The translations under genes and the position numbers were made by a program. Positions 3-36,459 of a stretch of 42,058 nt of DNA are shown piece after piece. The notes beneath the pieces were generated by a model. The model saw only the letters and a program-made list of their open reading frames with translations, was not told the DNA's origin and made no database searches. This DNA is from Candidatus Tayloriibacteriota bacterium (GTDB lineage: Bacteria > Patescibacteriota > Minisyncoccia > Phycocordibacterales > PALSA-1337), in NCBI GenBank assembly GCA_031384385.1, contig JANNAN010000008.1, forward strand, positions 1 through 42,058, in the 5' to 3' direction. The number at the start of each line of letters is the position of its first letter. Position 1 is the first letter of the stretch.

Positions 3-1466
3 CCAGCTGCTTATACAGCTCCAGCAGGATGGACATGTCCAGGGACAACTCCAGTAGTTGTTACACCAGGAACAGGAACAATTACAACTCCAGGAATTCC
101 TGGAACACTTATTTATAATCTACAATCAACATTTAACAACAGTACTCTAGATAAGGGTAAGACAGTTGATGTTGCTCGTTATAAGTTACAAGCATCAGCT
201 TCAGATATGCAAGTTTCAAGCTTGTCATTTGATGTAAACAAGAGACTATGGTTGTACGTATCAGCTATAACTCTTAAGGATGATGCTGGAAATGTTATTG
301 CCTCAAAGACAGGTCTAACATCTTCAGATTTCTCTGAACTAAATGTTGGAGATAGTTATAGACTAACTCTACCTCTTAGTTATGTAGTTCCAAGAGCTAC
401 ATCAAAATACATAACTATAAACTTGACAGCTCAATCAGCAACAGACCGTACATCAACTGACACAATTACAATCACTTCATCACAAGCACGTGCAGTTGAT
501 GGAACAGGAGTAAATGATACACAAACTGATCCTACAGATCGTAATGTTGCTTGGACAGGAAGTAGTAATGCCGCTATTGTTACAACAATAGACAGTGCTT
601 CACCATCTACAAAGCTTGTACAAATTTCAACATCAGTTGAAACAGACAATGTAGTTCTAGGAGTATTCGATATTAAGTCACAAAACACAGCTACAATGTT
701 GAGAACACTTAAGGTAAGTGTTAGAACATCAGGAAATACAGTTAACGGATTGTTTAACGATATAAAGCTTAAGATTGGTGGAAATACATGGTCAGCTGAT
801 AGTATAGATACAGCTTCTCCAAATACAGTTTCATCATCTTCAGTTACATTCACAAACCTAAATACAACATTAACAAAGGATACTTACGTATCAGTTACTG
901 TTCTAGGAAAGGTTGCAAAGAATGTAACAGGATCAGCTTCTACAACATTGTATGCTAATGCAACAAACATTGTAGTTGAAGATTCTTCATACGCAGCAGT
1001 TTCTGTAAATACAGCAACTATTGCAGCAAATACACAGTCATTCACTACTTCAGGTGTTGTTGTAGTTAATCCTCTGGTTACAAAGGGTCAAAAGACTGTC
1101 ACAAATGCTGGTACAACAACAGAGACATTCTCTCTAGCGTTCGGACTAACAGCTGGTGATAATCCAATATACGTTGCTAAGGCAATTGGAACAGCTATTA
1201 CTGCTACAAGTAGTAATACAGCAGTTACAATTACTTCAACTGACTTCTCTGTAAATGACTCAAACAATGATGGAGCAACATACTTCTACATTGCCCCAGG
1301 TCAAACAAAGATATTCACAGCAACATATTTTGCTAGTGCAAATCCTGAATCATCTACTGTATTTAAAATCACTGATATCAAAGCTGGTGTAGATTCAACA
1401 ACTTTGAACAGTATAGATTTGAATTCATCTGATATTCAAAATGCTCTAAAGGCAACTATGTTCTAG
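3..1466 (+). CDS. 5'-truncated large Ser/Thr-rich surface (S-layer-like) protein
   Basis: The frame is open from the window edge (PAAYTAPAGWTCPGTT...) into ORF 207-1466; the protein is Thr/Ser/Val-rich and beta-strand-like; a strong terminator follows. Confidence 0.65.
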   Translation, partial: PAAYTAPAGWTCPGTTPVVVTPGTGTITTPGIPGTLIYNLQSTFNNSTLDKGKTVDVARYKLQASASDMQVSSLSFDVNKRLWLYVSAITLKDDAGNVIASKTGLTSSDFSELNVGDSYRLTLPLSYVVPRATSKYITINLTAQSATDRTSTDTITITSSQARAVDGTGVNDTQTDPTDRNVAWTGSSNAAIVTTIDSASPSTKLVQISTSVETDNVVLGVFDIKSQNTATMLRTLKVSVRTSGNTVNGLFNDIKLKIGGNTWSADSIDTASPNTVSSSSVTFTNLNTTLTKDTYVSVTVLGKVAKNVTGSASTTLYANATNIVVEDSSYAAVSVNTATIAANTQSFTTSGVVVVNPLVTKGQKTVTNAGTTTETFSLAFGLTAGDNPIYVAKAIGTAITATSSNTAVTITSTDFSVNDSNNDGATYFYIAPGQTKIFTATYFASANPESSTVFKITDIKAGVDSTTLNSIDLNSSDIQNALKATMF

Positions 1467-1483
1467 TCTTTAGTTAAAGAAAA

Positions 1484-1547
1484 CTCCCCACAACAGGTTA
1501 AAAAGTTGTACAAAAAGCCACTCGAAAGAGTGGTTTTTTGTTGTTTA
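1484..1547 (+). repeat. Inter-cassette repeat copy R1, includes intrinsic terminator hairpin
   Basis: ctccccacaacaggttaaaaagttgtacaa + AGCCACTCGAAAGAGTGGTTT (1516-1536) + T tract; near-identical to 3577-3640. Confidence 0.85.
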
Positions 1548-1656
1548 AATTTAGCTAATTTACTTCAATCTCTATTAAATCTTTATTCCGTCTACAGCAT
1601 TTCTTTATCTCGGGTTGGTAAGATTTGGGTATTATTAGGTTAATTAAATTTTAATT

Positions 1657-2046
1657 ATGTACATACAGGAATTTGATTTATGGAATGATCAGAAGAAAAA
1701 TATTAGTCAAACTATATTTACTCGTTTTTATAAGGAGCGAGAGATTTGGTGGTGTAATTTGGGAAAAAATATAGGTAGTGAACAAGATGGTAAAGGAGAT
1801 TATTATGAAAGGCCCGTATTAGTAATAAAAGCATTTAGCAGGTCTGTTTGTTTGATAATACCATTAACTACTTCTGCAAAAGAAAGTAAATTTTATTATA
1901 AAGTCGGTGTAATTGATGAGAAAGATGCTTCTGTTGTAATATCTCAAATCAAACTTATAAACACCAGAAGACTAACAAATAGAATATCGATATTAGATGA
2001 TGGAATCTTTCAAAACATAAGAAAAACCATCAGGGATTTATTCTGA
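1657..2046 (+). CDS. PemK/MazF-family endoribonuclease toxin
   Basis: Motifs EIWWCNLG.NIGSEQ.G, RPVLV, IPLTT, SQI..I...RL. Confidence 0.85.
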   Translation: MYIQEFDLWNDQKKNISQTIFTRFYKEREIWWCNLGKNIGSEQDGKGDYYERPVLVIKAFSRSVCLIIPLTTSAKESKFYYKVGVIDEKDASVVISQIKLINTRRLTNRISILDDGIFQNIRKTIRDLF

Positions 2047-2056
2047 TGGTTTTTCT
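2020..2056. terminator. Bidirectional hairpin spanning the mazF-1 stop codon
   Basis: 14-bp perfect inverted repeat agaaaaaccatcag (2020-2033) / ctgatggtttttct (2043-2056). Confidence 0.75.
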
Positions 2057-2105
2057 ACTTGTTCTCCCTATTTCTAGGGCGGGGCCGAAGCCATTGATAC
2101 TTAAT

Positions 2106-2133
2106 ATAATAGCAAATCAAAATTTACTGTCAA
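2106..2133 (-). promoter_or_regulatory. Convergent sigma70 promoter facing mazF-1
   Basis: Minus strand reads TTGACA-N16-TATTAT with an extended TG. Confidence 0.65.
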
Positions 2134-2141
2134 GAAAGATT

Positions 2142-2210
2142 AAGGGGAATTTAGATAATGAAAAAAGCTCTCTAGGAGATAAAACTCTCAGAGAACCTTT
2201 TTCGTCGTGA
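2142..2210 (+). pseudogene. Remnant 3' end of a NYN-like gene
   Basis: Reads KGNLDNEKSSLGDKTLREPFSS*, resembling the NYN C-terminus KDKLEYIRKAPLEDETSRSAFP*; same hairpin and convergent promoter context. Confidence 0.5.
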
Positions 2211-2215
2211 TGTAC

Positions 2216-2337
2216 ATATATTATCACCTTCAAAAAATTATACAAGAAGCCACTTAGAAAAGTGGTTTCTTGTTGTTTATTTTATCAACACCTTATCCCC
2301 GCGAGATAAAGAAAGGATAAAGTTTTTGTGGTTTTTG
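2216..2337 (+). repeat. Inter-cassette repeat copy R2
   Basis: Core AGCCACTTAGAAAAGTGGTTT at 2248-2268; left flank shared with R3, right flank shared with R5. Confidence 0.85.
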
Positions 2338-2405
2338 GCGTATACAATGATTTTCTAATTGCTAGAATATTTAGATGATTATAATTAACATATCTAAAAT
2401 AAAAT

Positions 2406-2795
2406 ATGCTGAAAAGATTTATAGAATGGATTGGATTAAAAGAAAAACTTCACAATAACAACTCCACACCACCTTTGGTCAAGGAAAGAGATTTGTGGTG
2501 GATTAGTATGGGTGAGAATATTGGTTCAGAGATAAATGGCAAGAGTAAACTCTTTTCTCGACCTGGAATTATTTTGAAGAAACTATCCCATGGTTTTTAT
2601 CTTATTGTTCCAACAACAACACAGAAAAGAGAGGGGACGTGGTATGTGAATATTCATCATAATGAAATAGATATGTATGCCTGCTTGCATCAGATCAGAA
2701 CAATTGATTATAGAAGATTATCAACAAAATTTGGACAAATTAGTCACGGGGAACTCACTAAGATTAAAGAATCATTTAATAAGTTATATAAATAG
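2406..2795 (+). CDS. PemK/MazF-family endoribonuclease toxin
   Basis: Motifs DLWWISMGENIGSEINGK, RPGII, VPTTT, QIRTIDYRRL. Confidence 0.85.
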   Translation: MLKRFIEWIGLKEKLHNNNSTPPLVKERDLWWISMGENIGSEINGKSKLFSRPGIILKKLSHGFYLIVPTTTQKREGTWYVNIHHNEIDMYACLHQIRTIDYRRLSTKFGQISHGELTKIKESFNKLYK

Positions 2796-2848
2796 AAACA
2801 AAATTCCCCACCTTTTGGGCGGGGCCGCGGCTAATGCCGAATGTAGAT

Positions 2849-2908
2849 ATATATTATCACCTTCAAAAATTTATGCAAGAAGCCACTTAGAAAAGTGGTT
2901 TTTTGTTG
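2849..2908 (+). repeat. Inter-cassette repeat copy R3
   Basis: Core AGCCACTTAGAAAAGTGGTTT at 2881-2901; the downstream block 2932-3000 resembles 1567-1613. Confidence 0.85.
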
Positions 2909-3039
2909 GGAAAATTTTTTTAATTGCTGACAATCTCTATCAAATCTTTACTCTGTCTACAGCGTTTCTTTATTTTGTCTTTAGAATTTCTTTATCTCGG
3001 TACGGTAAAATATATAAATTATTATTAAATTTAAATAAA

Positions 3040-3573
3040 ATGAATAAGATAATTGAATTACAAATTGAAAATATAGTTAGTCATATTTACTTTATTAGAG
3101 GTAAGAAAGTAATGTTCGATAAGGATTTAGCTGAATTATATAGAGTAGACACAAAAGTATTAAATCAGGCAGTAAAAAGAAATATAAAGAGGTTTCCTTC
3201 TGATTTTGTGTTTAGATTAAATAAAGAAGAAACTAGTATATGGTATAGGGTATATTCAAGGTCACAAATTGTGACCTTGGGGAAAGGACAAAATATTAAG
3301 TATTACCCTTATGTTTTTACAGAACAAGGTGTGGCTATGTTATCAAGTATTTTGAAGAGTGAAACTGCGATAGACGTAAATATTCAAATTATGAGAACAT
3401 TTACAAAATTAAGAGAAATAATGTCTTCGAATTCTGAATTAAGAAATAAGATTGAAGAAATGGAGAAGAAATACAATAATAATTTTGAAGTTATTTTTGG
3501 AGCAATTAAAGAGTTATTGGCCGAGCCAGAAGAGAAGATTGTTGAGAATAAAGAGAGAGTAGGTTTCAACTAG
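3040..3573 (+). CDS. ORF6N-domain DNA-binding protein
   Basis: IRGKKVMFDKDLAELY, NQAVKRN..RFP.DF, PYVFTEQGVAMLSSIL. Start moved to ATG 3040 because the ORF-track extension runs through repeat R3. Confidence 0.85.
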   Translation: MNKIIELQIENIVSHIYFIRGKKVMFDKDLAELYRVDTKVLNQAVKRNIKRFPSDFVFRLNKEETSIWYRVYSRSQIVTLGKGQNIKYYPYVFTEQGVAMLSSILKSETAIDVNIQIMRTFTKLREIMSSNSELRNKIEEMEKKYNNNFEVIFGAIKELLAEPEEKIVENKERVGFN

Positions 3574-3576
3574 TTT

Positions 3577-3645
3577 CTCCCCATAACAGGTTAAAAAGTT
3601 GTACAAAGAGCCACTTAGAAAAGTGGTTTTTTGTTGTTTATTTTT
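3577..3645 (+). repeat. Inter-cassette repeat copy R4
   Basis: Core at 3609-3629; left flank nearly identical to R1. Confidence 0.85.
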
Positions 3646-3723
3646 CTACATCCTATTGATTCTCCATCCAACTAAAAGTATAATAGTAGTATTGTAATCC
3701 CAAGATTTAATTTTAATAAAAAT

Positions 3724-4839
3724 ATGGCTCAAATAAAGCGTTATTTAGAAGAAAAAATAATAGAAAGTATTCAAAAAGACAAGATTTTGATTATTTATGG
3801 CGCTAGACAAGTAGGAAAAACAACTTTAGTTAAGAAATTTCTAATAGGTGAAAAATCACTATATTTAAATGGAGATTTTATTGATGATGCAGAAAAGCTT
3901 GATAAACCAACAAAAGAAATGGTTGCTAGATTTGAACAATTAGATTTACTTATAATTGATGAAGCTCAAAATATTAAAGATATTGGTTTAAAACTTAAAG
4001 TAATACATGATACATTGCCAAATCTAAAGATCATTGCTACTGGTTCATCGAGCTTCGAGTTATCTAATAAAATCAATGAACCCTTAACAGGAAGACACTT
4101 CTCACATTTGATGTACCCATTTTCTTTTAAAGAAACAAAAAATCAAAATACTAATATAAAGGAGTCGATGGTTTATGGAATGTATCCTGATGTATTTTTG
4201 CAAGAAACAATCAAAGATAAAAGAGAAATTATAGAAAGAATTGCTTCAAGTTATCTTTTTAAAGATTTGCTTAATATTGAATATATAAAGAATCCAAAAT
4301 CATTAGAACATCTATTAAAAGTATTAGCATCACAAATTGGTAATGAAGTTTCATTTAATGAAATTTCAAATACATTAGATATTGATATAAAAACTGTAAC
4401 TAAATATATAGATATATTAGAAAAACTTTTTATAGTATTTTCTCTAAATCCACTAACTTCAAACACAAGAAAATCATTAACAAAAAAGAGAAAGTATTAT
4501 TTTTATGATTTAGGAATAAGAAATGCTATTTTAGGAGACTTTTCAGAAATAGAAAGTCGTGTTGATAAGGGTGCTTTGTGGGAAAACTTTTGTATTATAG
4601 AAAGACTAAAGAAAAATTCGGCTGAAGATAAAAATCCAAGATATTATTTTTTTAGAACATATCAGGGTGACGAGATAGATTTTATTGAAATTGATGATGC
4701 TGTTGTTACTGGTTTTGAATTTAAATATAGTAAAGATAATATAAGTAGTAAGGTAAAAAAAATGTACAAAGTAGATCTGAATGGGCAAGGAGAGATACAA
4801 GTCATTAACACTGAAAATTGTATAAATTTTATTTCTTAA
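3724..4839 (+). CDS. AAA+ ATPase (AAA_14 + DUF4143 type)
   Basis: Walker A GARQVGKT, Walker B IIDEAQ, TGSS, LTGR, KYYFYDLG, C-terminal EIDF...FEFK nuclease-like motif. Confidence 0.85.
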   Translation: MAQIKRYLEEKIIESIQKDKILIIYGARQVGKTTLVKKFLIGEKSLYLNGDFIDDAEKLDKPTKEMVARFEQLDLLIIDEAQNIKDIGLKLKVIHDTLPNLKIIATGSSSFELSNKINEPLTGRHFSHLMYPFSFKETKNQNTNIKESMVYGMYPDVFLQETIKDKREIIERIASSYLFKDLLNIEYIKNPKSLEHLLKVLASQIGNEVSFNEISNTLDIDIKTVTKYIDILEKLFIVFSLNPLTSNTRKSLTKKRKYYFYDLGIRNAILGDFSEIESRVDKGALWENFCIIERLKKNSAEDKNPRYYFFRTYQGDEIDFIEIDDAVVTGFEFKYSKDNISSKVKKMYKVDLNGQGEIQVINTENCINFIS

Positions 4840-4847
4840 TAAAATCA

Positions 4848-4968
4848 TCCCCCACAACAATTAAAACATTGTACAAGAAGCCACTTAGAAAAGTGGTTTT
4901 TTGTTGTTTATTTTATCCACATCTTATCCCCGTCAAATAAAGAAACGATAAAGTTTTTGTGGTTTTTG
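4848..4968 (+). repeat. Inter-cassette repeat copy R5
   Basis: Core at 4879-4899; left flank R1/R4-like, right flank R2-like. Confidence 0.85.
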
Positions 4969-5005
4969 ATATATACAGAAGTTTTTACATTGTTAAAATA
5001 GTTGG

Positions 5006-5545
5006 ATGGAAGACATTAAAAAGGAAAATAATTACGCTTTTATTGATAGTCAGAATCTAAATCTCGGCATACAAAAGCTTGGTTGGAAATTAGATTATTT
5101 TAAATTTAGAATTTATCTTAAAGAAAAATATAATGTCAGTAAGGCGTATATATTTATTGGTTATATGCCCTTGAACCAAAAACTTTATGAAAAATTAAAA
5201 GAAACGGGTTTTATCTTATGCTTTAAACCAACAATACCAAATTCTGACGGTAAATTTAAAGGTAATGTTGATGCCGATATGGTTTTACAAACAATAATTG
5301 AATTGAATAATTATAATAAAACCATAATTATTTCTAGTGATGGGGATTTCTATTCGTTAGTAAAATATCTCTATGAAAATAATAAATTAGAAATAGTTCT
5401 GAGTCCTGATATAGGTGAGTGTTCAAGTCTTTTAAAACAGAATGCGAAAGAAAAAATTCATTTTATGAATGAACTAAAAGATAAATTAGAGTATATAAGA
5501 AAAGCACCGCTTGAAGACGAAACATCAAGAAGTGCTTTTCCCTAA
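5006..5545 (+). CDS. NYN-domain (LabA/DUF88-type PIN-fold) RNase
   Basis: AFIDSQNL, KGNVDADMV, SSDGDF acidic motifs. Confidence 0.85.
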   Translation: MEDIKKENNYAFIDSQNLNLGIQKLGWKLDYFKFRIYLKEKYNVSKAYIFIGYMPLNQKLYEKLKETGFILCFKPTIPNSDGKFKGNVDADMVLQTIIELNNYNKTIIISSDGDFYSLVKYLYENNKLEIVLSPDIGECSSLLKQNAKEKIHFMNELKDKLEYIRKAPLEDETSRSAFP

Positions 5546-5557
5546 CGATACATTATT

Positions 5558-5587
5558 ATATTATCAAAATATGTAGTTTGCTGTCAA
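5558..5587 (-). promoter_or_regulatory. Convergent sigma70 promoter facing the NYN gene
   Basis: Minus strand reads TTGACA-N18-TAATAT with an extended TG. Confidence 0.6.
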
Positions 5588-5644
5588 ATTTTTGTACGCG
5601 TACACCAAATTTACTATCAATTCATTTTCTGCTACAATATAGAC

Positions 5645-5815
5645 ATGGTAAACCCATTCGACAGGACATTCTTTAGATTAATACTTGGTTTTACATTTAT
5701 ATTGAGTTTAAGCTTCTCAATTATGTATTTTGTTAATAAATATAGCTCAGTTTTTGATAATAAACAGGCAACTGCCTTAAAAAATGATTCGGATCAAATA
5801 AAAATTAAAAAATAA
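5645..5815 (+). CDS. Small single-pass membrane protein (56 aa; below the ORF-track cutoff)
   Basis: MVNPFDRTFFRLILGFTFILSLSFSIMYFV...; TGcTACAAT lies 6 nt before the ATG; a terminator follows at about 5836-5865. Confidence 0.6.
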   Translation: MVNPFDRTFFRLILGFTFILSLSFSIMYFVNKYSSVFDNKQATALKNDSDQIKIKK

Positions 5816-5977
5816 TAGCTAAAATGATTAAAGATAAAGCCACCACATAAAAGGTGGTTTTTCTTTTATTTATTTATATGTTGTGGTGAAAATCTTTATC
5901 ATTTATTTAGAATTTCTTTATCAGATCTTTATCTCTATTTTGTATAATTTATCTATTATTAAATAATTTATTTTATT

Positions 5978-8572
5978 ATGAAAATTATATTAAAAAAGAA
6001 AATAGTTTTTTTATCTAGTCTGTTATTGATTGCGTTTACATTTAGTCCATCAATTTCTTATGCAGAAACTTATATAACAAATGATGATGTCAGATTTGGT
6101 GCCAATTGGTATAAAGAAGGAAGTCCATATATTCTCGATGAAGACATTAGTATTAATAATGGTCATGCATTAAATATCTATAAAGGAGTAACTGTAATAT
6201 CTGCTTCAACAACAAATGAAACGGGAAATTTGCATACTATTACTGTTGATCAAGGAGAAATTGATATGCAGGGCACAAAAGATGATCCAATTTTTATTGA
6301 AAATTTAAAATACATTTATTTTAATTATAGTGAAATAGCAAATTTCGATAATGTTATTTTGAATAAGACGGGCTTAGATTTTTGGCATAGTACAAGTAGT
6401 ATAAATAATACAATAATAAAAAATTCTGAAAATGCTATAAATACTACTGCAAGTAATATTTCTATAAATAATAGTAAAATTATAAAAAATAAAATAGGCA
6501 TTGCTTCGCATCAGACAGAATCTCCACCTGTTCTTATATTTAATGATGATATGTATAAATTCGAGGGGGTGGGCGGTATGGGAAATGCCACTGAAGGTAT
6601 TGCAGATACTATTCTAGATTTTAAACAAAATATTATTAATATAAATAATTCTGAAATTGAAAATAATACAGATTATGGAATTTTACAGGAATCAGTAAAT
6701 CCAATAAATGCAGTAAATAATTGGTGGGGTAATCCAAATGGTCCAAGTAATGATGAAGTCATAGCAGGAGATAGGATTTCTGGGTTGATTAATTATATTC
6801 CTTGGATTAATAAAAATATTATTAAATGCTGTTCAAATGTATTGTTTCTACCCGGAATTGAAGCTAGTAGATTGTACAAAGATTCTTTGGGGTTATTTGG
6901 CACAAGTACAAATCAGCTTTGGGAGCCAAATAGGAATGATGATGTAAGAAAGTTGTATCTTGATAAAGATGGTAAAAGTATTGATTCTACAATTTATACA
7001 AAAGATATTCTAGATTCAGCTTTTGGATTAAAGTCTATTTATGAAAGTTTTATCGCTATGATGAATAGCGTGGTTGCGGATGGCTCGATCAAGCAATGGT
7101 TACCATATGCTTATGATTGGCGAATGAGTGTTGAAGAAATTGTAAAGAATGGTGATTTAATTAAAGTAGTGCAAGATTTGGCTAAAAATTCGAAAACTGG
7201 AAAGGTGATTATAATTGCGCATAGTAATGGAGGGCTTGTAACAAAAGAACTATTAAAAGCCCTAGAATTAAAAAGGGAAGGTGAAATTATAGAAAAAGTA
7301 ATAAATGTAGCTGTTCCGGAATTAGGAACTCCACAAGCTTTGTTAGGATTATTGCATGCTAATAATCAATCTATATTTAGCGGGGTGGTTTTGTCTGAAA
7401 ATAATGCTAGAACTTTTTCACAAAATATGTCAGGTGCTTATGGGCTCTTACCTTCAAGAAAGTTTTTTGAAAATAGACCAGAATCTGTTATTTCAAATTT
7501 ATTCTCTAGTTCTACTTATTCGACAGCGTCATTATATGATTCAATGAAAAATTTCTTACTTTTTAATTCTTTTTCAAAAGCATCATCAACGGATATTAAT
7601 ATTCCATTAATTCTAAATCCATCACTGATTTCAATTTCGGATTCAATTCATTCAGTGATTGATATATTTAAGCCTGCAAGTACCACAAAAACTTTATCGA
7701 TATTTGGCTGGGGTTTGCCAACTTCAGAAGCCATTCAATATGAAAAAGATAAACATTGTAATCCAAATCTAAAGAAATTAATTAAACAAACCTGCCCAAA
7801 TATCTATTCTCCAATACTAACTCATTCTGGAGATGGAACTGTATTAACAAAGACTAATTCTAATAATTCAGATTCGACTCTTTTCTTTAATTTAAAAAAT
7901 ATTGAAAAAAATTTGGATAAAACAATAGAGCATGGTGATATCCTTGAATCTGCAGATTTATTGAATAAGATAAAAGATACGGTTATAGATTCTACTTCAA
8001 CGGATAAAAATTATGATAAATATTTTTCAAATACAGAACCGATTGATACTGATAAATATTTAACGATAAAAGTATATTCACCTGTTGATATTCATATCTA
8101 TGATAAAAATGGAAATCATACTGGAATAATTGAAAATCCAATCCCAGGTAAAGACTTAAGAAATTATGAGAAAAATATACCAACTAGTTATTATGGAAAT
8201 TTCGGAGGTTTAAAAATGATTAGAGTTCCTTATAATCAAGATTATCAAATTTTATTAAAAGGTACGGGCGAAGGTGTATTTTCAGTTGATGCTTCTATTA
8301 CTCAATTTGATCAAACAATTGCCACAATAAGTTTTGATGAAATGCCAGTAAGTACAGATATGAATGGAGAAATGATTATCGCCACTTCTACTGAAACTTT
8401 TTCAAATAAATCATTGATAAATATTGATGAAAATGATGATGGGATAGCAGAACATGAATATAAGGAAAAAGGTCATCATAAAAAAATACATAAAAAAATA
8501 AAGAAATTACCAAAGAAATTGCGTCATGTTCGAGTTACTGAAAATAATGTTCAAGCTAAGGAACATAATTGA
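5978..8572 (+). CDS. Secreted multidomain protein: beta-helix repeats plus LCAT-like alpha/beta hydrolase
   Basis: Signal peptide; Asn/Ile-rich repeats with NNWWG; PGIEAS oxyanion motif, YDWR, AHSNGG nucleophile elbow, GDGTV. Confidence 0.7.
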   Translation: MKIILKKKIVFLSSLLLIAFTFSPSISYAETYITNDDVRFGANWYKEGSPYILDEDISINNGHALNIYKGVTVISASTTNETGNLHTITVDQGEIDMQGTKDDPIFIENLKYIYFNYSEIANFDNVILNKTGLDFWHSTSSINNTIIKNSENAINTTASNISINNSKIIKNKIGIASHQTESPPVLIFNDDMYKFEGVGGMGNATEGIADTILDFKQNIININNSEIENNTDYGILQESVNPINAVNNWWGNPNGPSNDEVIAGDRISGLINYIPWINKNIIKCCSNVLFLPGIEASRLYKDSLGLFGTSTNQLWEPNRNDDVRKLYLDKDGKSIDSTIYTKDILDSAFGLKSIYESFIAMMNSVVADGSIKQWLPYAYDWRMSVEEIVKNGDLIKVVQDLAKNSKTGKVIIIAHSNGGLVTKELLKALELKREGEIIEKVINVAVPELGTPQALLGLLHANNQSIFSGVVLSENNARTFSQNMSGAYGLLPSRKFFENRPESVISNLFSSSTYSTASLYDSMKNFLLFNSFSKASSTDINIPLILNPSLISISDSIHSVIDIFKPASTTKTLSIFGWGLPTSEAIQYEKDKHCNPNLKKLIKQTCPNIYSPILTHSGDGTVLTKTNSNNSDSTLFFNLKNIEKNLDKTIEHGDILESADLLNKIKDTVIDSTSTDKNYDKYFSNTEPIDTDKYLTIKVYSPVDIHIYDKNGNHTGIIENPIPGKDLRNYEKNIPTSYYGNFGGLKMIRVPYNQDYQILLKGTGEGVFSVDASITQFDQTIATISFDEMPVSTDMNGEMIIATSTETFSNKSLINIDENDDGIAEHEYKEKGHHKKIHKKIKKLPKKLRHVRVTENNVQAKEHN

Positions 8573-8581
8573 CTATAAGAG

Positions 8582-8680
8582 CGACTTTTGATAATGTGTT
8601 GAATATAAGGCCAGAGACAGAAGGCGTCCATAAGACCTTCCGAGGTACTCTTTCAACCTTATCAAAGGTCGTTTTTTATT
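8582..8680 (+). promoter_or_regulatory. L10 leader (rplJL autogenous control RNA)
   Basis: CCAGAGACAGAAGG...CCTTCCGAGG core (8611-8645) upstream of rplJ; 8582-8594 pairs with 8659-8671, followed by a T tract. Confidence 0.7.
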
Positions 8681-8773
8681 AAAAATTAACTTGGGTTCGT
8701 AAGCGTAGAAGTCTTTTTTCTGAAACATGTTGAAGAAAAAAGAGTTTGTGCGCATTAAAGAATTCCGAAATAA

Positions 8774-11287: not shown

Positions 11288-12150
11288 GTTCTCTACACAG
11301 AAATATGTTAAGAAATCATTATTTTAAACGGCCATAACCACACCCTTTAAAAGGTGTAGAAATGAGTCGCTTAAAAAGCGGTTTTTTTGTAAAAATTTCA
11401 AAAGAAATTTCCGAACGACCGATACATTGACAATTTAATACTCCAACAATCTTGAACAATCAGAAGGTTGTTGGGGAAAAAGGTAATACTGTAATACATA
11501 TATATGATGAGGGTTTTTTCGAATATATATGTAGATATAGTATGTTGTTAAATAAACAGCCAAAAATATTAAATTATTTTTGTGCATGTTGTAGACAGAT
11601 AATTGTGGTTTTTAGATTTCCTAATGGGAAATTTAAGAGTATATGGTGGATGCCTTGGCTTCTAAGAAGCGATGAAGGACGTGGCGTGGCGACGATATGT
11701 TTCGGGGAGGTGCCTAGCAACCTTTGATCCGAAAATTTCCGAATGAGGAAACTCTCTGACTTCGAGTCAGAATTAAACAGCTTGACTGTTTAATGCACAC
11801 CCAGGGAAGTAAAACATTTCAGTACCTGGAGGAATAGAAACAAATATGAATTTCGTAAGTAGCGGCGAGCGAAAGCGGAAGAGCCCAAACCTAACCTTAA
11901 TCGTATTGCGGGACGCAAGTCTTGTGATGCGATTAAGGTTGGGGGTAGTAAGGTGAGAACGTACCATTTATGGTAGAAAAGTTACAAAATTTTTTGATAG
12001 AAGAATAAGCTGGAAAGCTTAGCCCTAGAAGGTGATAGCCCTGTAGTCGAAATCAAAAAATCTTTTTTGTTCTCATTCTTGAGTACCTCAAGACACGAAT
12101 GGCTTGAGGGAATCTGCCGGAACTAACCGGTAAGGCTAAATATTCTAGAA

Positions 12151-12190
<40 letters not shown>

Positions 12191-12763
12191 CAGCCCGGTA
12201 AGGGCGATGAAATAGACCTGAAACCATATATTTACAAGGAGTAGAAGAGGTAGCAATACCTCGACTGCGTGCCTATTGAAGAATGAGCCAACGAGTTGAT
12301 GCATGTTGCAGGCTAAGCGCGAGAGCGTGGAGCCACAGGGAAACCGAGTGTGAATAGCGCGTTAGTAGTATGCATCAGACCCGAAGCCAGATGAGCTTGC
12401 CTTGAGCAGGTTGAAGTTTGTCGAAAGACAGATGGAGGACCGAACGCTAAAGTTGTGCAATTCTTTGCGATGACTTGAGGTAAGGAGTGATAAGCTAATC
12501 GAATCTGGTAATAGCTGGTTCTCTCCGAAATAGCTTTTGGGCTAGCGTTGAATGTACCCCTCTGGGGTAGAGCACTGGAAGGTTCTGACAGGTCGAAAGA
12601 TCCCTGAACCTATCAAACTCCGAATACAGAGGATTAATTATTCAGCAGTTAGACGGTGGGGGCTAAGCTCCATACGTCAAAAAGGAAACAGCCTAGATCT
12701 CCATTTAAGGTCCCTAAATCTATGTTAAGTACACTTAAGGTGGTTGAATTTCTCAAACAATGA

Positions 12764-12795
<32 letters not shown>

Positions 12796-13602
12796 GAAAG
12801 CGTAACAGCTCACTCATCGAGAGATTCTGCGCCGCAGATAATCGGGGTTAAACATAGTACCGAAACTGAGGATTGTATTTTATTTCGATAATATACAGTG
12901 GTAGGAGAGTATTCTAATCTGCGTTGAAGGCAAAGGCGTGAGCCATGCTGGAGCGTTTAGAAGTAAGAATGTTGGCACAAGTAACCACAATGCGGGTGAG
13001 AATCCCGCACGCCGAAAGAACAAGGTTTCCTTGGCTATGAAAATCAGCCAAGGGTTAGTCGGGCCTAAGGGGATGGTGAAAACCGCACCCGATGGACACA
13101 TGGTTAATATTCCATGACTTTTATATAGAGTGATGAAGTGACGAAGTGCAGTATATGGTGCTCATTATTGGATTTGAGTGCATGCTATAGGGGATTGATC
13201 CAGGAAAATCCGGGTCGTGTCTTTAATGACAATTCCGAGTAGAGTGTAAATGTAGGGGTTCGCCCTTGCAGATATCATAAAGCGCGCTTCCGAGAAAAAC
13301 TTCTAAACTTATCTATATAGGAACCGTACCGCAAACCGACACAGGTGTTCAGGTCGAGTAGACCAAGGCGAACGAGTGAGAGGTCTCCAAGGAACTCGGC
13401 AAAAAATCAGCCGTAACTTCGGAATAAGGCTTGCCCTTTGTTAACTCAAGGGGCCGCAGCTAAAGTATCTCTGGCAACTGTTTATCAAAAACACAGCTCC
13501 CTGCGAACTCGTAAGAGGATGTATAGGGGGTGACACTTGACCAATGCCAGAAGGTCAAATAATGGCGGTGCGATTATATCAAGCTGACTGTTATAAGCCC
13601 TG

Positions 13603-13637
<35 letters not shown>

Positions 13638-13859
13638 TCTGCTACTCATGATTTGAGTGGCAGACGGACTAGGACTGTTATATAGCAAAGGTGTACGTTT
13701 TTAGATAAAATTAGTTAAAACAATTACATAAACAAGCTACCTGTTCATAAGTAATTATGAGCTGAGTCCAATGTGGTTAAATAGAGACCAACACCACACA
13801 TCCGATCTCCGTAAGGTGAGGATGAAGATAGAGTCCTACTGTGCTTAAAGGAATAGTAG
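13638..13859 (+). mobile_element. 222-nt group I-like intron at E. coli position L1931, no ORF
   Basis: Interrupts GGTCCTAAGGT^AGCGAAATTCC; preceded by U, ends in G; S-like AAGATAGAGTCC. Confidence 0.8.
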
Positions 13860-14522
13860 AGCGAAATTCCTTGTCGGGTAAGTTCCGACGCGCACGAATA
13901 GTGTAATGTCTGGAGAACTGTCTCGGAGACTTGCTCGGTGAAAATACAATATCGGTGAAGATGCCGATTACCTACAGTTAGACGAAAAGACCCTAGAAGC
14001 TTTACTGCAACTTGATTTTGACTATATGTTTTTTATGCGTAGCGTAGATGGGAGGATTTGAAGTTTTCTTTTCGGGGAAGATGGATCCGCAAGTGAAATA
14101 CCATTCTTAAAAAATATATATTCTAACCTCAACGGCAAAAACGATGAGAGACAGAATCTGGCGGGCAGTTTTAGTGGGGCGCTATCCTCCTAAAAAGTAA
14201 CGGAGGAGTTTATTAAGGTCAGCTAGCCGTGAATGGAAACCATGGCGATAGTGTATAGGCATAAGCTGGCTTGACTGTGAGACGTACTTGTCAAACAGAT
14301 GCGAAAGCAGAACTAAGTGAACCGACCTTACGCATTAGACGCGGGGGAAGATTATCGGATAAAAGCTACTCTAGGGATAACAGGCTGGTTGCGCCTAAGA
14401 GTTCATATCGACGGCGCAGTTCGGCACCTCGATGTCGGCTCAACTTATCCTGGGGCTGGAGAAGGTCCCAAGGGTTTGGCTGTTCGCCAATTAAAAAGTT
14501 ACGCGAGCTGGGTTCAGACCGT

Positions 14523-14878
14523 TCAGAAGTGAATGGTCGCCAATATAAGATGATTATTGACTGTTGAACAGTCTGAATCACTTCGAGTTAGTGTTAATTA
14601 AAAAATATTTTCGTTTAAAATAATTATAGATCTCAAGATTTATAATAATAAAAGATAAGGAAGTAGATCAATCAAATCACGGCGGTCCAGTATAGAAATA
14701 TATTCGGATCAAGTTAACTAGTATCGGTGGACTCCATTTAATAGTGGATTATACCGAGGGAAGTTGTCAATTAAATTTGGCTACACCCGTAGAGACTAAA
14801 CGTTAACTATCTAATTTGCGCGAAAGCGTAAAAAGATAATGCTATAGTCCAATGCAATGAGTAATCATTGAAAACATG
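14523..14878 (+). mobile_element. 356-nt group I intron at E. coli position L2593, no homing endonuclease
   Basis: Interrupts GGTTCAGACCGT^CGTGAGACAG; U before, terminal G; R motif AGAGACTA, S motif TATAGTCC, P4-like tcggt/accga. Confidence 0.9.
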
Positions 14879-15239
14879 CGTGAGACAGGTTGGTCTCCTA
14901 TCTACTGTAGGCGTTGATTCTTGAGGGGATTTGACTCTAGTACGAGAGGACCGAGTTGAACTGACCTCTGGTCTGACTGCTGTTCTACCAAGAGCATCGC
15001 AGTGTAGCTATGTCGGGAATGGATAACTTCTGAAAGCATCTAAGAAGGAAGCCAGCCCCAAGATTAGGAATCGTTTGAGACCCGTAAGAGATGATTACGT
15101 TGATAGGCTTTAGGTGTACGCATAGCAATATGTTGAGCCGAGAAGTACTAATCCGTCGATCCTATTAGGAAATTTAAGAACCACAATTATTTGTCTATAA
15201 CAATAATTATTTAACAACCTTTTGAAATTGAGTTTTTTG

Positions 15240-15349
15240 TTCTGGTGATTTGGCGCTGTGGAAACACCCGTTCTCATTCCGAACACGGAAGTGAAACGCA
15301 GTTGCGGTGATGATACTCTTATGAAGGGGAAAGTAACTAGTCGCCAGTA
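15240..15349 (+). rRNA. rrf: 5S rRNA
   Basis: CTGGTGA...CCCGTTCTCATTCCGAACACGGAAGTGAA...TCGCCAG. Confidence 0.92.
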
Positions 15350-22320: not shown

Positions 22321-22872
22321 ATGGAAAATAAAGATATACAAATACAAGTAGCAAAAGCAGAGGAAGTTATTAAGCAAAGAATTTATATTATAAGAGGGCA
22401 AAAAGTTATGCTGGGGCAAGATATTGCTGAGCTATATCAAGTACAAGTAAAAGTTTTAATACAAGCAATGAATCGTAACAAAGATCGTTTCCCAGAAGAC
22501 TTTGTTTTTCAACTTAATGACGATGAGTATGAAAACTTGAAGTCACAATTTGTGACTTCAAGTTGGGGAGGTATAAGAAGAGCAAAACCATATGCATTTA
22601 CTGAACATGGAGTAGCTATGTTATCTTCGATCTTAAAAAGTAAGATGGCAGTTAATATGAGTATATTTATTGTTCGTGCGTTTATCAAAATGAGAGAATC
22701 CCTTGATCAGTATAAGGATTTATCAATTAAAATAAATGACATGGAATTAGAGCAAAAGGAACAGGGGATATTACTTATACATGTTCATTCAGCTGTTAAA
22801 GGTCTAATCAATAAAATAGCTATTAAAAAACCTATTAAAAATAAGAGTAAAATAGACTTTCAAATTAAATAG
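22321..22872 (+). CDS. ORF6N-domain DNA-binding protein (second paralog)
   Basis: IRGQKVML..DIAELY, RFPEDFVFQL, PYAFTEHGVAMLSSIL. Confidence 0.88.
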   Translation: MENKDIQIQVAKAEEVIKQRIYIIRGQKVMLGQDIAELYQVQVKVLIQAMNRNKDRFPEDFVFQLNDDEYENLKSQFVTSSWGGIRRAKPYAFTEHGVAMLSSILKSKMAVNMSIFIVRAFIKMRESLDQYKDLSIKINDMELEQKEQGILLIHVHSAVKGLINKIAIKKPIKNKSKIDFQIK

Positions 22873-22882
22873 CCAAAACCCC

Positions 22883-22910
22883 TTGACTTTATTCTACAGC
22901 CGAGTAGAAT
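22883..22910 (+). promoter_or_regulatory. 16S promoter
   Basis: TTGACT-N16-TAGAAT. Confidence 0.7.
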
Positions 22911-23174
22911 GGTATCCACGCCTTAAGTAAGGCGCGTTTTTAAAGAGTTTTTTGAAAAATTAATAAGTTATGCATTAGAAACGTATTCATATCATATTTG
23001 CTATTGGTAAATTGATTTAACTACGTGCAAGTCTAATGTCTATTTGAACAATGATTTTATTCGATTATATTCACAATCGATAGGGGCGAAGTTCAAACTC
23101 AATGCAGCTGAAATTTGGTTCAAGGTAAAAAGTTTAATTTAAAAAATTATGTTTTCTATTTTGTTCCGTTCATT

Positions 23175-24670
<1,496 letters not shown>

Positions 24671-24874
24671 AAATTGAATCTACGATTTTGATCTTTTAGA
24701 TCATTATCTTACCGAGTCGATTGATTGTTAATATTTATATTTTCAGTCCAAAGGCCATTGTTCTACACCTAAACGTGAACACTCAGCCCGCGAGAGAAAG
24801 GGCATAGGTTGGTACCCTCTATAGAGGTACTAACCGAATGAACGGAACAAAATAAAGAACATTTAATTTTTATG

Positions 24875-33640: not shown

Positions 33641-33845
33641 ACTAGCAGTTTAAAGATTAGATCTTTGATACTAATTTGCAATTCGCTACAGCAGAAAGTG
33701 CCTTATAATTTAAGGAATTCTCTGCTGTGGCGAAGTCGTGTGACCAAGCCAGTCCTACCTAGGACAACAGTAAACCAAAAACTATCCGATTCAGAGCTTC
33801 CACCAAATATGTGTGGAGTGCAATGAGGAGGGAGAAAGGAATACA

Positions 33846-34544
33846 ATGAAAAAGTTAGATTGGAAAGGTGTTGGGCAGTTTTTTGCTGTCCTCATAAACC
33901 TCATCACCATCATCACGACTACCCTGAAAAAAGCTGCTGTCAGTATCGAGATCCTCGACTGGCTGACTGGCGCAGGGAAGTCGGAGTTTGTCGCTGCGCT
34001 CGAAAAGCTCGGCGAGTCCTACAAGAAATCTGTTCCTGAGCCTCTGCCGGTCAAGGCGAAAACGGGTGAGTCGTATGTGATACATTCCGCAAGGGTGAAT
34101 CTCTCTGCTCAACCGAAATTGCCTTTCAGCGGCGCGACCGTTGAGTCCAACACGGGAGGCGGCATGGACGTCTTGATCGAGATGAAATCGGATGGTCATC
34201 TGTATGTGGACGGAAAGAAAATCGTCCTCCATCTCGAACAAGGTCATCGCACAGGTTCAATGCATGGCCACAAGCTCCGCGAGGCGCTTAGAGGCAAGTC
34301 GGTCATGAATGCGGCTCTGCTGGATTTCCTCAAAGAAAACCCGCAGTTCATTCCGAACTATTGGAAGGTTGATGAAAAGGGCAATACCCGTTACATCTAC
34401 TTCTGGAGAACGGTTTTCCGCAGCTCCGATGGCAGCCTCTATGTCCGTTGCCTCTACTGGAACGATGGCAAGTGGATCGCGGACTACCGCTGGCTCGGTG
34501 ATGACTGGAGCTTCTTCGACCCGGCTGCGGTGTCCGCAAGTTAG
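33846..34544 (+). CDS. DGR target protein with C-terminal variable region
   Basis: ATG 33846 follows GGAGAAAGGA; the 3' end contains the VR; visibly GC-richer than its neighbours. Confidence 0.9.
   Translation: MKKLDWKGVGQFFAVLINLITIITTTLKKAAVSIEILDWLTGAGKSEFVAALEKLGESYKKSVPEPLPVKAKTGESYVIHSARVNLSAQPKLPFSGATVESNTGGGMDVLIEMKSDGHLYVDGKKIVLHLEQGHRTGSMHGHKLREALRGKSVMNAALLDFLKENPQFIPNYWKVDEKGNTRYIYFWRTVFRSSDGSLYVRCLYWNDGKWIADYRWLGDDWSFFDPAAVSAS
34418..34539 (+). repeat. DGR variable repeat (VR)
   Basis: 122-bp ungapped match to 34922-35043 with 14 mismatches, 13 of them opposite TR adenines. Confidence 0.96.
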
Positions 34545-34642
34545 CACTTAGGGCTCGGTTACTGTGTTCTGTGGCTTCTAGACACTTTGACCTTTGCTCT
34601 CGCGATACGAAAACGCTTTGAAGGGCGTTCGATAAAATCTTC

Positions 34643-34672
34643 AAACCCCGTTGCATCTGCGCGGGGTTTTAT
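34643..34672 (+). terminator. Hairpin downstream of VR (terminator and/or DGR homing hairpin)
   Basis: aaaccccg...cggggtttt; a second small hairpin lies at about 34611-34629. Confidence 0.65.
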
Positions 34673-34921
34673 TATTTATATATGCTAGAATTGTCCGCGG
34701 TAGTAGGTGAATATGCGAGCGACTACGGTTGCTCGCTACCGAATCCAGTATCCATACATCGAGAATATCTCCGACTAAGGTTTGGGGTAGAGTGGTGTAT
34801 TTCGAACTTCATCAAAAAATGAATATACTTGGTACGAAACGCTATAGTATTACGATACCAAATACGATACAACTCCGAGAGTATTCAAGGGGTGGTGGCA
34901 TGGAAGGCGTTTCGTATAATA

Positions 34922-35043
34922 CCGCAACTCCGATGGCAACCTCTATGTCCGTTACCTCTACTGGAACGATGGCAAGTGGATCACGAACTACAACTGGCTC
35001 GATAATGACTGGAACTCCAACAACCCGGCTGCGGTGTCCGCAA
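34922..35043 (+). ncRNA. DGR template repeat (TR)
   Basis: AAC-rich copy of VR; in the VR frame it reads RNSDGNLYVRYLYWNDGKWITNYNWLDNDWNSNNPAAVSA. Confidence 0.96.
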
Positions 35044-35079
35044 TTTTCTTCATTTCTCTCCCACAAAAACGGGAGAGTT

Positions 35080-35481
35080 TTATTTTTCTATTTGTTTATT
35101 TACTTGCCCATACCAACCACCAAGCATTTTACCTATTTCATGTAATAGGGCAGAAATAGTAATGTATTTTTTATTATCTAATCCTTTTGATTCCCATAAA
35201 ACTAATAAAAGTATTTTTAATGTATCTAATTTTCGTATAGCAACTTTTATATATGGTAATTTTTCTGATCTTGATGAAAAGGCCGCTGAAGAAATCATTT
35301 CAATTATCTCTATAAATATATTATCAATTTTATTACCCAGAGAGTATTTTTGCGACTTCTGAATTTTTTCATGATATTCATGCCATAACTTGTATACAAT
35401 TTTTACTCTATCTAGCACTGGTAAAATCGTTGGGGGGGGGAGGGTAACATTTGAGGAATGAGCAGAATTAAATTTATTCAT
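35080..35481 (-). CDS. avd: Avd-like accessory protein (four-helix bundle)
   Basis: LPV...Y.LW, KYSLG.KI, LD.LK.LL, EIGKMLGGW; lies between TR and RT; ATG 35481 preferred as start. Confidence 0.85.
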   Translation of the reverse strand: MNKFNSAHSSNVTLPPPTILPVLDRVKIVYKLWHEYHEKIQKSQKYSLGNKIDNIFIEIIEMISSAAFSSRSEKLPYIKVAIRKLDTLKILLLVLWESKGLDNKKYITISALLHEIGKMLGGWYGQVNKQIEK

Positions 35482-36459
35482 GCGTACGATGATATCATTT
35501 CTATAGAAAATTTGCTCGAAGCATGGCATGAATTTATTTTAGGCAAAAAGAACAGAAAAGATGTTCAGCTGTTCCAGCTTCATCTAATGGATAATATTAT
35601 TGATTTACACAAAGAATTAAAAAATAAGACATATATTCATCATGGTTACAAAGCTTTTAAAATTTCAGATCCCAAACCTAGAAACATTCACAAGGCCAGT
35701 GTTAGAGATAGGCTACTTCACCATGCCATTTATCGTATGTTATATCCATTTTTCGATAGGACATTTATAGCCGATTCTTATTCTTGTCGTATGCGAAAGG
35801 GCACACATAAGGCCATGGATAGATTTAATATCTTTACTAAAAAACTTTCAAAAAATCATACGAAAACGGCATGGGTTCTCAAATGTGATATTAAAAAGTT
35901 TTTTGATTCAATTGACCATGCTGTTTTAAGAGAAATTTTATCAAAGTATATTTTAGATCAGAATATTTTAAATCTTTTGTCCGGGATAATCGGTAGTTTT
36001 GAATCAAAAATAGATAGTACTGGTGTTGGTTTACCACTAGGCAATCTCACATCACAATTATTTGTAAATATTTACATGAATGAATTCGATCAATTTATGA
36101 AGCATAAAATTAAGGCTAAATATTATATAAGATACGCAGATGATTTTGTGATTATGGATAATAATAAAGATTATTTAATTAAATTACTCCCTAAGATTAA
36201 TGATTTTTTAAATGATAAGTTAAAACTTACGCTTCATCATGGTAAGGTCTTTATAAAAACAGTTAATTCGGGTGTTGATTTTCTTGGCTGGATTCATTTT
36301 ACTGATCATAGAGTATTAAGAACTTCAACAAAAAGAAGAATGTTTAGAAATTTAAAGTCTAAAAAGCCTCAAGAAGCCACTGTTCAATCATATCTAGGCT
36401 TATTTAAACATGGGAATGCAAAAGAGTTGGGGAATAAAATAAGGGGACTTTATTTATAA
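35458..36459 (+). CDS. DGR reverse transcriptase
   Basis: PKPR.I, RDRLLHHA, SYSCR..KGTH.A, KCDIKKFF, GLPLGNLTSQLF.NIY, RYADDF, GVDFLG. Confidence 0.96.
   Translation: MSRIKFIHAYDDIISIENLLEAWHEFILGKKNRKDVQLFQLHLMDNIIDLHKELKNKTYIHHGYKAFKISDPKPRNIHKASVRDRLLHHAIYRMLYPFFDRTFIADSYSCRMRKGTHKAMDRFNIFTKKLSKNHTKTAWVLKCDIKKFFDSIDHAVLREILSKYILDQNILNLLSGIIGSFESKIDSTGVGLPLGNLTSQLFVNIYMNEFDQFMKHKIKAKYYIRYADDFVIMDNNKDYLIKLLPKINDFLNDKLKLTLHHGKVFIKTVNSGVDFLGWIHFTDHRVLRTSTKRRMFRNLKSKKPQEATVQSYLGLFKHGNAKELGNKIRGLYL

Follow-up and report, generated by a model that had tools for sequence, protein, structure and literature searches.

A run of five toxin- and defence-like genes, separated from one another by copies of one structured repeat, lies near the start of a 42,058-nt stretch of DNA from an ultra-small bacterium of the Candidatus Tayloriibacteriota (assembly GCA_031384385.1, contig JANNAN010000008.1, positions 1 to 42,058). 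This whole stretch is called the window, and the repeat is called R. The source genome, G000, measures 652 kb, and other G numbers designate genomes of the same genus or related ones. Ultra-small bacteria of this kind have genomes of about 0.65 Mb with few mobile elements of the classical types, so that little is understood of the way in which they acquire and rearrange their defence and toxin genes. The locus provides a concrete and repeatable case, in which copies of resident regulatory DNA bracket each of the single RNase-type and defence-candidate genes. This is a real, reproducible feature, present in two species.

Genes and repeat copies of the array

The genes and repeat copies of the locus are listed by position, with the evidence for each in brackets.

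3..1466, plus strand: putative cell-surface protein gene, 3′ part, 487 codons (open reading frame, ORF; the window begins inside the gene)
1484..1552, plus strand: R1, flank A with the small hairpin and a variant core at 1516-1536 (repeat family, fold, terminator scan)
1657..2046, plus strand: cassette 1, MazF1, PemK/MazF-like, 129 aa (Pfam PF02452, E 4e-14)
2216..2284, plus strand: R2, flank B and an exact core at 2248-2268 (repeat family, fold, terminator scan)
2406..2795, plus strand: cassette 2, MazF2, PemK/MazF-like, 129 aa (Pfam, E 4e-9)
2849..2917, plus strand: R3, flank B and an exact core at 2881-2901 (repeat family, fold)
3040..3573, plus strand: cassette 3, ORF6N-domain gene, 177 aa (Pfam PF10543, E 4e-32; PADLOC candidate PDC-S05, E 6e-56)
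3577..3645, plus strand: R4, flank A and an exact core at 3609-3629, with a right flank that is neither X nor Y (repeat family, terminator scan)
3724..4839, plus strand: cassette 4, AAA_14 and DUF4143 ATPase gene, 371 aa (Pfam; PADLOC candidate PDC-S01, E 8e-127)
4847..4915, plus strand: R5, degenerate flank A and an exact core at 4879-4899 (repeat family, fold, terminator scan)
5006..5545, plus strand: cassette 5, NYN-domain gene, 179 aa (Pfam PF01936, E 2e-13)
5645..5815, plus strand: small membrane-protein gene, 56 aa (conserved backbone; directly after R in empty sites)
5978..8572, plus strand: LCAT-like lipase/esterase gene, right border of the hot spot (Pfam PF02450; in 45/45 genus genomes)

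Each of the five junctions surface/MazF1/MazF2/ORF6N/AAA/NYN holds one copy of R, as the first-pass annotation had stated from the letters of the sequence, and no copy was found behind NYN, the last cassette. R contains a 21-nt core that occurs exactly, on the plus strand, at 2248, 2881, 3609 and 4879. A fifth copy at 1516-1536 carries four central differences, one of them compensatory within the stem. With up to 3 mismatches allowed, the window holds four matches to the core, against 0.00 expected in 100 shuffles. The likeness extends beyond the 21-mer to about 55-60 nt common to all five copies, which the repeat search groups into one 69-nt family.

The sequences on either side of the core come in different types, and both repeat families and BLAST bear out the types and combinations first proposed. 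Left flank A is found in R1, R4 and R5 (over 69 nt, R4 is 88% and R5 74% identical to R1; flank A with the core reaches 90.6% identity over 64 nt by BLAST), while left flank B is found in R2 and R3 (95% over 60 nt, core included). On the right, flank X is common to R2 and R5 (91.5% over 106 nt) and flank Y to R1 and R3 (90.7% over 43 nt). All four combinations, A-Y, B-X, B-Y and A-X, are present.

The core has no other occurrence in the 652-kb genome. It was not found at up to 2 mismatches in 60 relatives, and exact matches numbered 0 in metagenome contigs and 0 in a collection of species genomes. A degenerate flank-A pattern matched 2 single-copy loci in the metagenomes and 6 loci in the species genomes, which comprise two single-copy loci and four overlapping ones on one contig of Candidatus Taylorbacteria, with two matches each. 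The related contigs are assigned to Candidatus Taylorbacteria, and one to Candidatus Saccharibacteria.

The cassettes had been described as toxin- or defence-like, a description that fits the two PemK genes, the NYN gene and the PADLOC candidates PDC-S05 and PDC-S01. MazF1 and MazF2 are only 32% identical to each other. Each cassette gene has an upstream block of 100-200 nt of its own and a terminator behind it, which argues against transcription from one shared promoter. A Pfam scan of the ORFs of the 42-kb window revealed no recombinase gene, in agreement with the earlier claim.

A copied terminator at a genus-wide insertion hot spot

The copies of the core fold as a 14-bp hairpin with an A-tract before and a T-tract after (z-scores of -3.5 to -5.9), and a terminator scan flags R1, R2, R4 and R5. 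The core is thus by its form a canonical intrinsic terminator, with the G+C-containing hairpin, upstream A-tract and downstream T-tract of its class. Unlike an ordinary terminator, it occurs nearly identically five times in 3.4 kb behind unrelated genes. Over positions 1400-6100, 14 terminator-like sites were found, against 1.3 expected from shuffles. No Rfam family matches the repeat, the only weak hit in the search being an L10 leader at 8593-8686, below threshold.

R1 is orthologous to a single-copy element that lies behind the surface gene in 23 other species. In an alignment of the 24 species, R is conserved as a CTCC-type motif followed by a small hairpin (loop of the GGTTAAAA type), an A-tract and the terminator. 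Pairing in the 4-bp core of this hairpin is 100% in the 24 species, and 2 of the 4 pairs have changed on both sides. For the whole structure of R, the covariation score was reached by 0 of 500 shuffles, a count that is no probability since the sequences are akin; sliding the partners lowers pairing from 94% to 40-58%. The small 3′UTR hairpin of the surface gene (window 1484-1545), with its compensatory changes across the genus, lies outside any Rfam family.

Because 15 of the 33 genomes in which the site is readable have a single R after the surface gene, flank A and the core are that gene's own 3′UTR and terminator, which bears out the earlier proposal that the terminator of the surface gene is the source of the repeat. 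In 45 genomes of the genus, the flank-A pattern finds the element at this locus only, and G000 and G024 alone have it in multiple copies. The G008 contig stops shortly after the element, and an unassembled array is possible there.

The first ORF of the window is fairly read from its sequence as a cell-surface protein: it is rich in serine, threonine, alanine and asparagine, and a PG_binding_1 (peptidoglycan-binding) domain lies near the N-terminus of one full-length relative. The ORF itself has no Pfam match. Its relatives in the genus measure 611-658 codons. An ORF at G000:C24:10802-11467, which runs off the contig end, is 49% identical to the surface ORF of the window over the latter's first 87 residues and would on that account be a paralogue or an internal repeat; contig C24 also carries recA and another MazF-like gene. 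A unitig from the source sample reaches about 6.7 kb past the window start.

A surface-protein relative is present in 23 of the 45 genomes of the genus and, wherever it shares a contig with the LCAT-like gene, the two are always neighbours in the same orientation. The genes rplJ and rplL lie downstream of the LCAT-like gene. The DNA upstream of the LCAT-like gene was read in 37 other genomes of the genus, 4 of which are cut by contig ends, leaving 33. In 15 of these, the surface gene is followed by about 20 nt, by one flank A with its terminator and then by the small membrane-protein and LCAT-like genes, with no insert; one more has a similarly short gap in which the hairpin pattern was unmatched. 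Differing inserted genes occupy the site in 11 genomes, and 6 have another layout. The inserts comprise a Fic and a PemK gene in G012, a RhuM-like ORF in G016 (outside the Pfam scan), an opposite-strand ATPase-like ORF with two secreted-protein ORFs in G020, pairs of secreted-protein ORFs in G019 and G064, and single ORFs in G026/G063 and G030/G065. The interval from the surface gene to the LCAT-like gene is therefore a genus-wide insertion hot spot, whose content is seen to vary from species to species. Pfam searches found no transposase, integrase or phage gene within the region in G000, G024 and G012. G027 differs in this respect, with an IS200-like Y1 tnpA gene inserted directly behind the terminator element of the surface gene (L041, C21:1-1600, 615-1043).

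At the same site, G024 carries an 80-nt repeat in six full copies and a partial one. Identity to a reference copy is 66-98% among the full copies, four of which reach 94% or more, and the repeat is the orthologue of flank A and the core in a variant of its own (85% identity to R1 over about 60 nt). They separate five NYN genes (one truncated), one PemK/MazF-like gene and a SocA/Panacea pair. The NYN genes of this array are 44-72% identical to the NYN query from G000, cassette 5 of the window being 72% identical to one of them. The right flanks are of two kinds, from families of 195 nt and 162 nt, each present three times in mixed order. Two species have thus stacked arrays independently at one site. 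In the last G024 copy the terminator hairpin is gone, a hint of decay where the array ends.

Right flanks and convergent promoters

The right flanks and the promoter-like sites of the locus are the following.

1566..1613, plus strand: right flank Y, a promoter-like module of TCTTTAT repeats upstream of MazF1 (BLAST, motif searches)
2106..2133, minus strand: convergent sigma-70-like promoter below MazF1, 11/12 consensus positions, TG-extended (promoter scan)
2283..2337, plus strand: right flank X, with the TTTCTTTATCTCG motif inverted (inverted repeats I1 and I7; BLAST, motif)
2797..2878, minus strand: putative small antisense unit, with a promoter-like site in flank B (2850-2878) and a terminator at 2824-2806 (terminator scan, fold; promoter read by eye)
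2931..3000, plus strand: right flank Y, the module in two overlapping copies ahead of ORF6N (repeat family D2, BLAST)
4914..4968, plus strand: right flank X upstream of NYN (repeat family D3, BLAST)
5558..5587, minus strand: convergent sigma-70-like promoter below NYN, 11/12 consensus positions (promoter scan)

The Y module consists of TCTTTAT-type repeats spaced about 11 nt apart, and clusters of at least three such repeats occur at 13 sites of the genome. Two of these are in the window (2967 and 5893) and the others lie in G000 at C4:19395, C5:5883, C9:28058, C9:87660, C9:103867, C11:17608, C11:34576, C11:38748, C13:16376, C20:14343 and C24:2156. The genes below Y-type modules encode ComEC, ComM, a PilB-type ATPase, a pilin-like protein, RhuM (twice), S6, the LCAT-like protein, ORF6N and MazF1. 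The TCTTTAT module may be a shared operator or promoter that ties DNA-uptake genes to accessory genes. Flank X holds the core motif of Y in inverted orientation, and X and Y would both be promoter or operator modules.

Two further ideas about X were dropped. A DnaA-box-like 9-mer in X (4913) has 22 occurrences genome-wide with no clustering at the locus, and a homology to the second flank type of G024, suspected because X has a 9-mer in common with it, gave nothing significant in BLAST.

Flank B reads, on the minus strand, as a sigma-70-like promoter followed by the minus-strand terminator at 2824-2806, which would together form an antisense transcription unit at 2797..2878. The two top-scoring promoter-like sites of 1400-6100 also lie on the minus strand, just below MazF1 and NYN. 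A convergent promoter within 220 nt of the stop was found for 14 of 30 MazF-like and NYN genes of the genus (shuffles: mean 0.5, maximum 3), against 0 of 30 in the sense direction. In the MazF-like genes inspected, a GGCTTCGGCC-type hairpin and a terminator follow the convergent promoter on the same strand. This suggests that solitary MazF-like and NYN genes are partnered by an antisense or small RNA instead of a protein antitoxin. Given the 14 convergent promoters and the absence of sense ones, flank B is assigned to the MazF-like gene, of whose antisense RNA unit it is probably a part, and is no free recombination arm. Hence the reassorted flanks noticed at first are real in their combinations but are not anonymous: Y is a module present at 13 sites, X is its motif inverted and B is a convergent promoter of MazF-like genes. 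Besides the array, the locus thus yields a covarying 3′UTR hairpin and a recurrent layout of gene and convergent promoter for solitary MazF-like and NYN genes.

Proposed homologous recombination and its alternatives

It appears somewhat probable that the interval 1484-5545 is a toxin/defence islet shuffled by homologous recombination on copied terminator-promoter modules. Each cassette would be a stand-alone unit made of a promoter-like module (X, Y or another), a gene and a copy of R, to which MazF and NYN units would add a convergent antisense promoter, flank B being one such. The copied terminator-promoter blocks would insulate each gene from read-through, and the same blocks would supply 60-200 bp of portable homology for RecA-type recombination, by which cassettes could be added, removed, converted or reordered. 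The possible routes include the Campbell-type insertion of circles, unequal crossing-over, gene conversion and incoming DNA in a competent cell. A single crossover could bring a circle of one cassette and one block into any copy of that block, the reverse reaction could release it again, and the reassorted flanks would be the product of unequal crossing-over and gene conversion. If the copied blocks do act as recombination handles, they would represent a recombinase-free route to integron-like arrays.

Several observations point in this direction. The blocks of homology between pairs of repeats start and end at differing points, which makes the repeats mosaic. Together with the 95% identity of flank B and the core, as opposed to 32% between the two MazF proteins, this mosaic is as expected of gene conversion or homologous recombination. 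Furthermore, copies of R are more alike within a genome than between species.

Other blocks are duplicated around other MazF-like genes. In G012 (L005, C3:5900-8700), a MazF-like gene that is the closest relative of MazF1 (64% identity) stands between the small membrane-protein and LCAT-like genes and is bracketed by a 135-nt direct repeat (92%), which comprises a different terminator and the LCAT promoter region. In G065 (L063, C19:700-2700), a 61-nt promoter block, which takes in the promoter and start region of a PilB-type gene downstream, is duplicated with 80% identity around another MazF-like gene. Both cases indicate that a local intergenic block is duplicated, with no universal core. 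Repeats that are more alike than the genes they bracket, mosaic ends, variants proper to each genome and the blocks of G012 and G065 all favour a homology-driven process over a dedicated site, and from these we infer that the recombination was homologous rather than site-specific and that the repeats aid the movement of cassettes. Crossovers had first been placed at or near the core, a claim that is not supported: nothing points to a site-specific event, and G012 duplicates a different terminator-promoter block altogether. G000 encodes RecA, DprA, ComEC, ComM, a PilB-type ATPase and a pilin-like protein, so the toolkit for a homology-driven route is at hand.

Among known systems, the minimal mobile element of Neisseria comes closest. 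As defined in PMC3787668, it consists of variable genes between two conserved flanks with no mobility genes inside, and its exchange is attributed to transformation and homologous recombination. The present locus is similar in that the content between the surface and LCAT-like genes varies, that RecA and competence genes are present and that the region in G000, G024 and G012 is free of transposase, integrase and phage genes. It differs in that the variation observed is between species and that copies of the resident terminator/3′UTR also separate the cassettes, which places homology inside the array, beyond the flanking genes.

Tandem duplication of gene-plus-repeat units followed by divergence was considered as another source of the array and rejected, since the genes (32% between MazF1 and MazF2, 44-72% between the G024 NYN genes and the G000 query) are far less alike than most of the G024 repeats (94-98%).

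A number of observations weigh against shuffling by homologous recombination. No conspecific genome was found in scans of relatives, metagenomes and species genomes, the stretch is contained only in contigs of the probable source sample, and gain, loss or reordering within a species, or a circle, was accordingly unseen. Five cassettes are accompanied by five copies of R, while a simple Campbell scheme predicts six. The core variant of R2-R5 is four positions off that of R1, and these copies were not made from the present R1. A homology of 60-80 bp is short for efficient RecA recombination. R3 and R5 have 33 identical bases in common, at which the k=31 unitigs of the source sample break, so the cassette order across them rests on the original assembler. 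Direct repeats of any kind flank only 5 of 20 other MazF/NYN loci and, among four of these five whose repeats were read, only the repeat of G065 brackets the MazF-like or NYN gene itself. As to X and Y as promoters, the promoter scan of 1400-6100 returned 30 sites, against 29.4 in shuffles. Finally, the genome has recombinase genes at other places, for two Xer-like and two large serine enzymes and one rve integrase, whose products could act in trans.

It is possible, if rather unlikely, that the repeats are passive. The genes would then have arrived through unrelated events, and the terminator and promoter blocks would have been copied in later, or homogenised by gene conversion, as insulation behind a strongly expressed surface gene, with no role in moving genes. 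Promoter reuse, in which highly similar promoter regions (putative mobile promoters) stand before unrelated genes in prokaryotes, is described in PMC3575422, and the presence of Y-type modules upstream of unrelated genes at 13 sites fits it. The greater likeness of R copies within a genome than between species also speaks for passive repeats, as does the unitig depth (12.1 for the cassettes and 11.9 for the flank), which gives no hint of a mixed population. Unlike in promoter reuse, the terminator is reused too, and only locally, and the terminator and promoter blocks bracket inserts. R occurs nowhere else in the 45 genomes of the genus and is thus no generally reused terminator; multi-copy arrays have arisen at one site in two species; and direct repeats of 60-200 nt are substrates of recombination, whether selected as such or not.

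We consider it doubtful that the 3′UTR/terminator of the surface gene is a true docking site, that is, a terminator-anchored gene-capture platform of the Patescibacteria in which the resident terminator-promoter block would be copied at every insertion, as happens to a CRISPR repeat when a spacer is gained. A recombinase with its gene elsewhere, or some mechanism not yet known, would do the work, and cassettes would pass between cells. The reusable docking site of the first-pass annotation stands as a description of the hot spot, with its varying content (15 empty and 11 occupied sites of 33) and its second array in G024, but not as a mechanism of crossover at the core. Were such a platform real, it would constitute a gene-capture system without a known family. 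A search of the literature on arrays in candidate phyla and on toxin-antitoxin genes, hot spots and S-layers in Patescibacteria found, in the portions retrieved, no description of such an array.

Site-specific recombination also seems improbable. A recombinase encoded elsewhere would recognise the hairpin or hairpins of R and insert or excise circular cassettes at one set position, within the core or next to it, in the manner of integrons or Xer modules. The invariance of the core in four copies with variable flanks on both sides, the conservation of the small hairpin of R with compensatory changes in 24 species, the arrays at one site in two species and the recombinases encoded elsewhere in the genome all speak for such a reaction. 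Nevertheless, no recombinase gene lies in the window or adjoins either array. The two Xer-like tyrosine recombinases, encoded on low-GC contigs, score 118.9 and 41.6 bits against a cut-off of 265 for the integron-integrase subfamily, and score best as Xer. Moreover, the small hairpin is absent from R2 and R3 and degenerate in R5, the boundaries of homology vary between repeat pairs, and other sequences are duplicated around the MazF-like genes of G012 and G065.

Integrons include integrase-less attC clusters as well as large chromosomal integrons with homogeneous repeats. As in these, single accessory genes, many of a toxin-antitoxin-like kind, are lined up in one direction at a single place in the chromosome, with a structured and nearly identical repeat between them. 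The integron-like logic noted earlier therefore applies to the layout of the array, but membership among integrons does not follow, as the Xer-like proteins fall below the cut-off and the genome holds no integron integrase. Folding, judged by eye, agrees with the statement that the repeats are not attC-like: the main hairpin of R is a perfect intrinsic terminator of 14 bp without bulges and with a T-tail, whereas attC is an imperfect palindrome whose outer and inner boxes pair and which leaves some bases unpaired, and the small hairpin has only 4-6 pairs. In addition, each gene would have an upstream module of its own, in place of the common promoter from which the mostly promoterless cassettes of integrons are read, and the repeat comes from the 3′UTR of a neighbouring gene. 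Xer-dependent dif modules of Acinetobacter plasmids are bounded by 28-bp XerC/XerD sites in alternating orientation, and their cassettes, which move without a recombinase gene of their own, are often toxin-antitoxin genes as well. Unlike these sites, all five copies of R are direct and on the plus strand, and no dif-like site was seen by eye.

Hairpin-dependent transposition in trans, of the IS200/IS605 or REP-like kind, is very improbable. A Y1 transposase would here move hairpin-bounded cassettes as single strands, and an IS200-like tnpA does lie directly behind R at the same site in G027, the Y1 family (PF01797) being matched in 6 of 44 other genomes of the genus. Neither G000 nor G024, each with a completeness rating of 100%, gives a match to it, on which ground IS200-type mobilisation was rejected as the principal explanation; no IS110-type gene is present in G000, and the mosaic of flanks is better explained by homologous exchange.

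An assembly artefact, in which a metagenome assembler would have created the repeats or chimeric joins, can hardly be credited: the 33 identical bases of R3 and R5, the breaks of unitigs at R3, R4 and R5 and the position of the window start at a contig end might raise the suspicion, but unbroken unitigs span 1-2905 (R1, R2 and the start of R3) and 3615-4903, and the same architecture occurs at the same site in the independent genome of the G024 species. The contigs of the source sample show no joint at any R, a result that bears on neither junction polymorphism nor circles, and one joint and loose ends that stem from paralogous promoter modules on other contigs.

Retro-copying by the reverse transcriptase of the window was also rejected as a source of the repeats, the gene belonging to a diversity-generating retroelement 30 kb off. 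This retroelement (33813-36456) has its variable repeat (VR) at 34418-34542, in the 3′-terminal part of a 243-codon gene, its template repeat (TR) at 34922-35046 and its reverse transcriptase gene at 35458-36456; 13 of the 15 differences between VR and TR fall at template adenines.

Contigs C1, C2 and C18 (55% G+C) and C6 (48%) of G000 depart from the 31-34% G+C found elsewhere and may be foreign to the organism; one of three tyrosine-recombinase matches sits on C1. A second ORF6N gene lies at 22321-22869, just upstream of the 16S gene. The rRNA genes of the window are unlinked and in an unusual order (11620-15349 and 22321-24674), with 23S and 5S first and 16S about 8 kb later. The 23S match spans 3552 nt, compared with a model of 2925 positions, and the gene probably contains an insertion.

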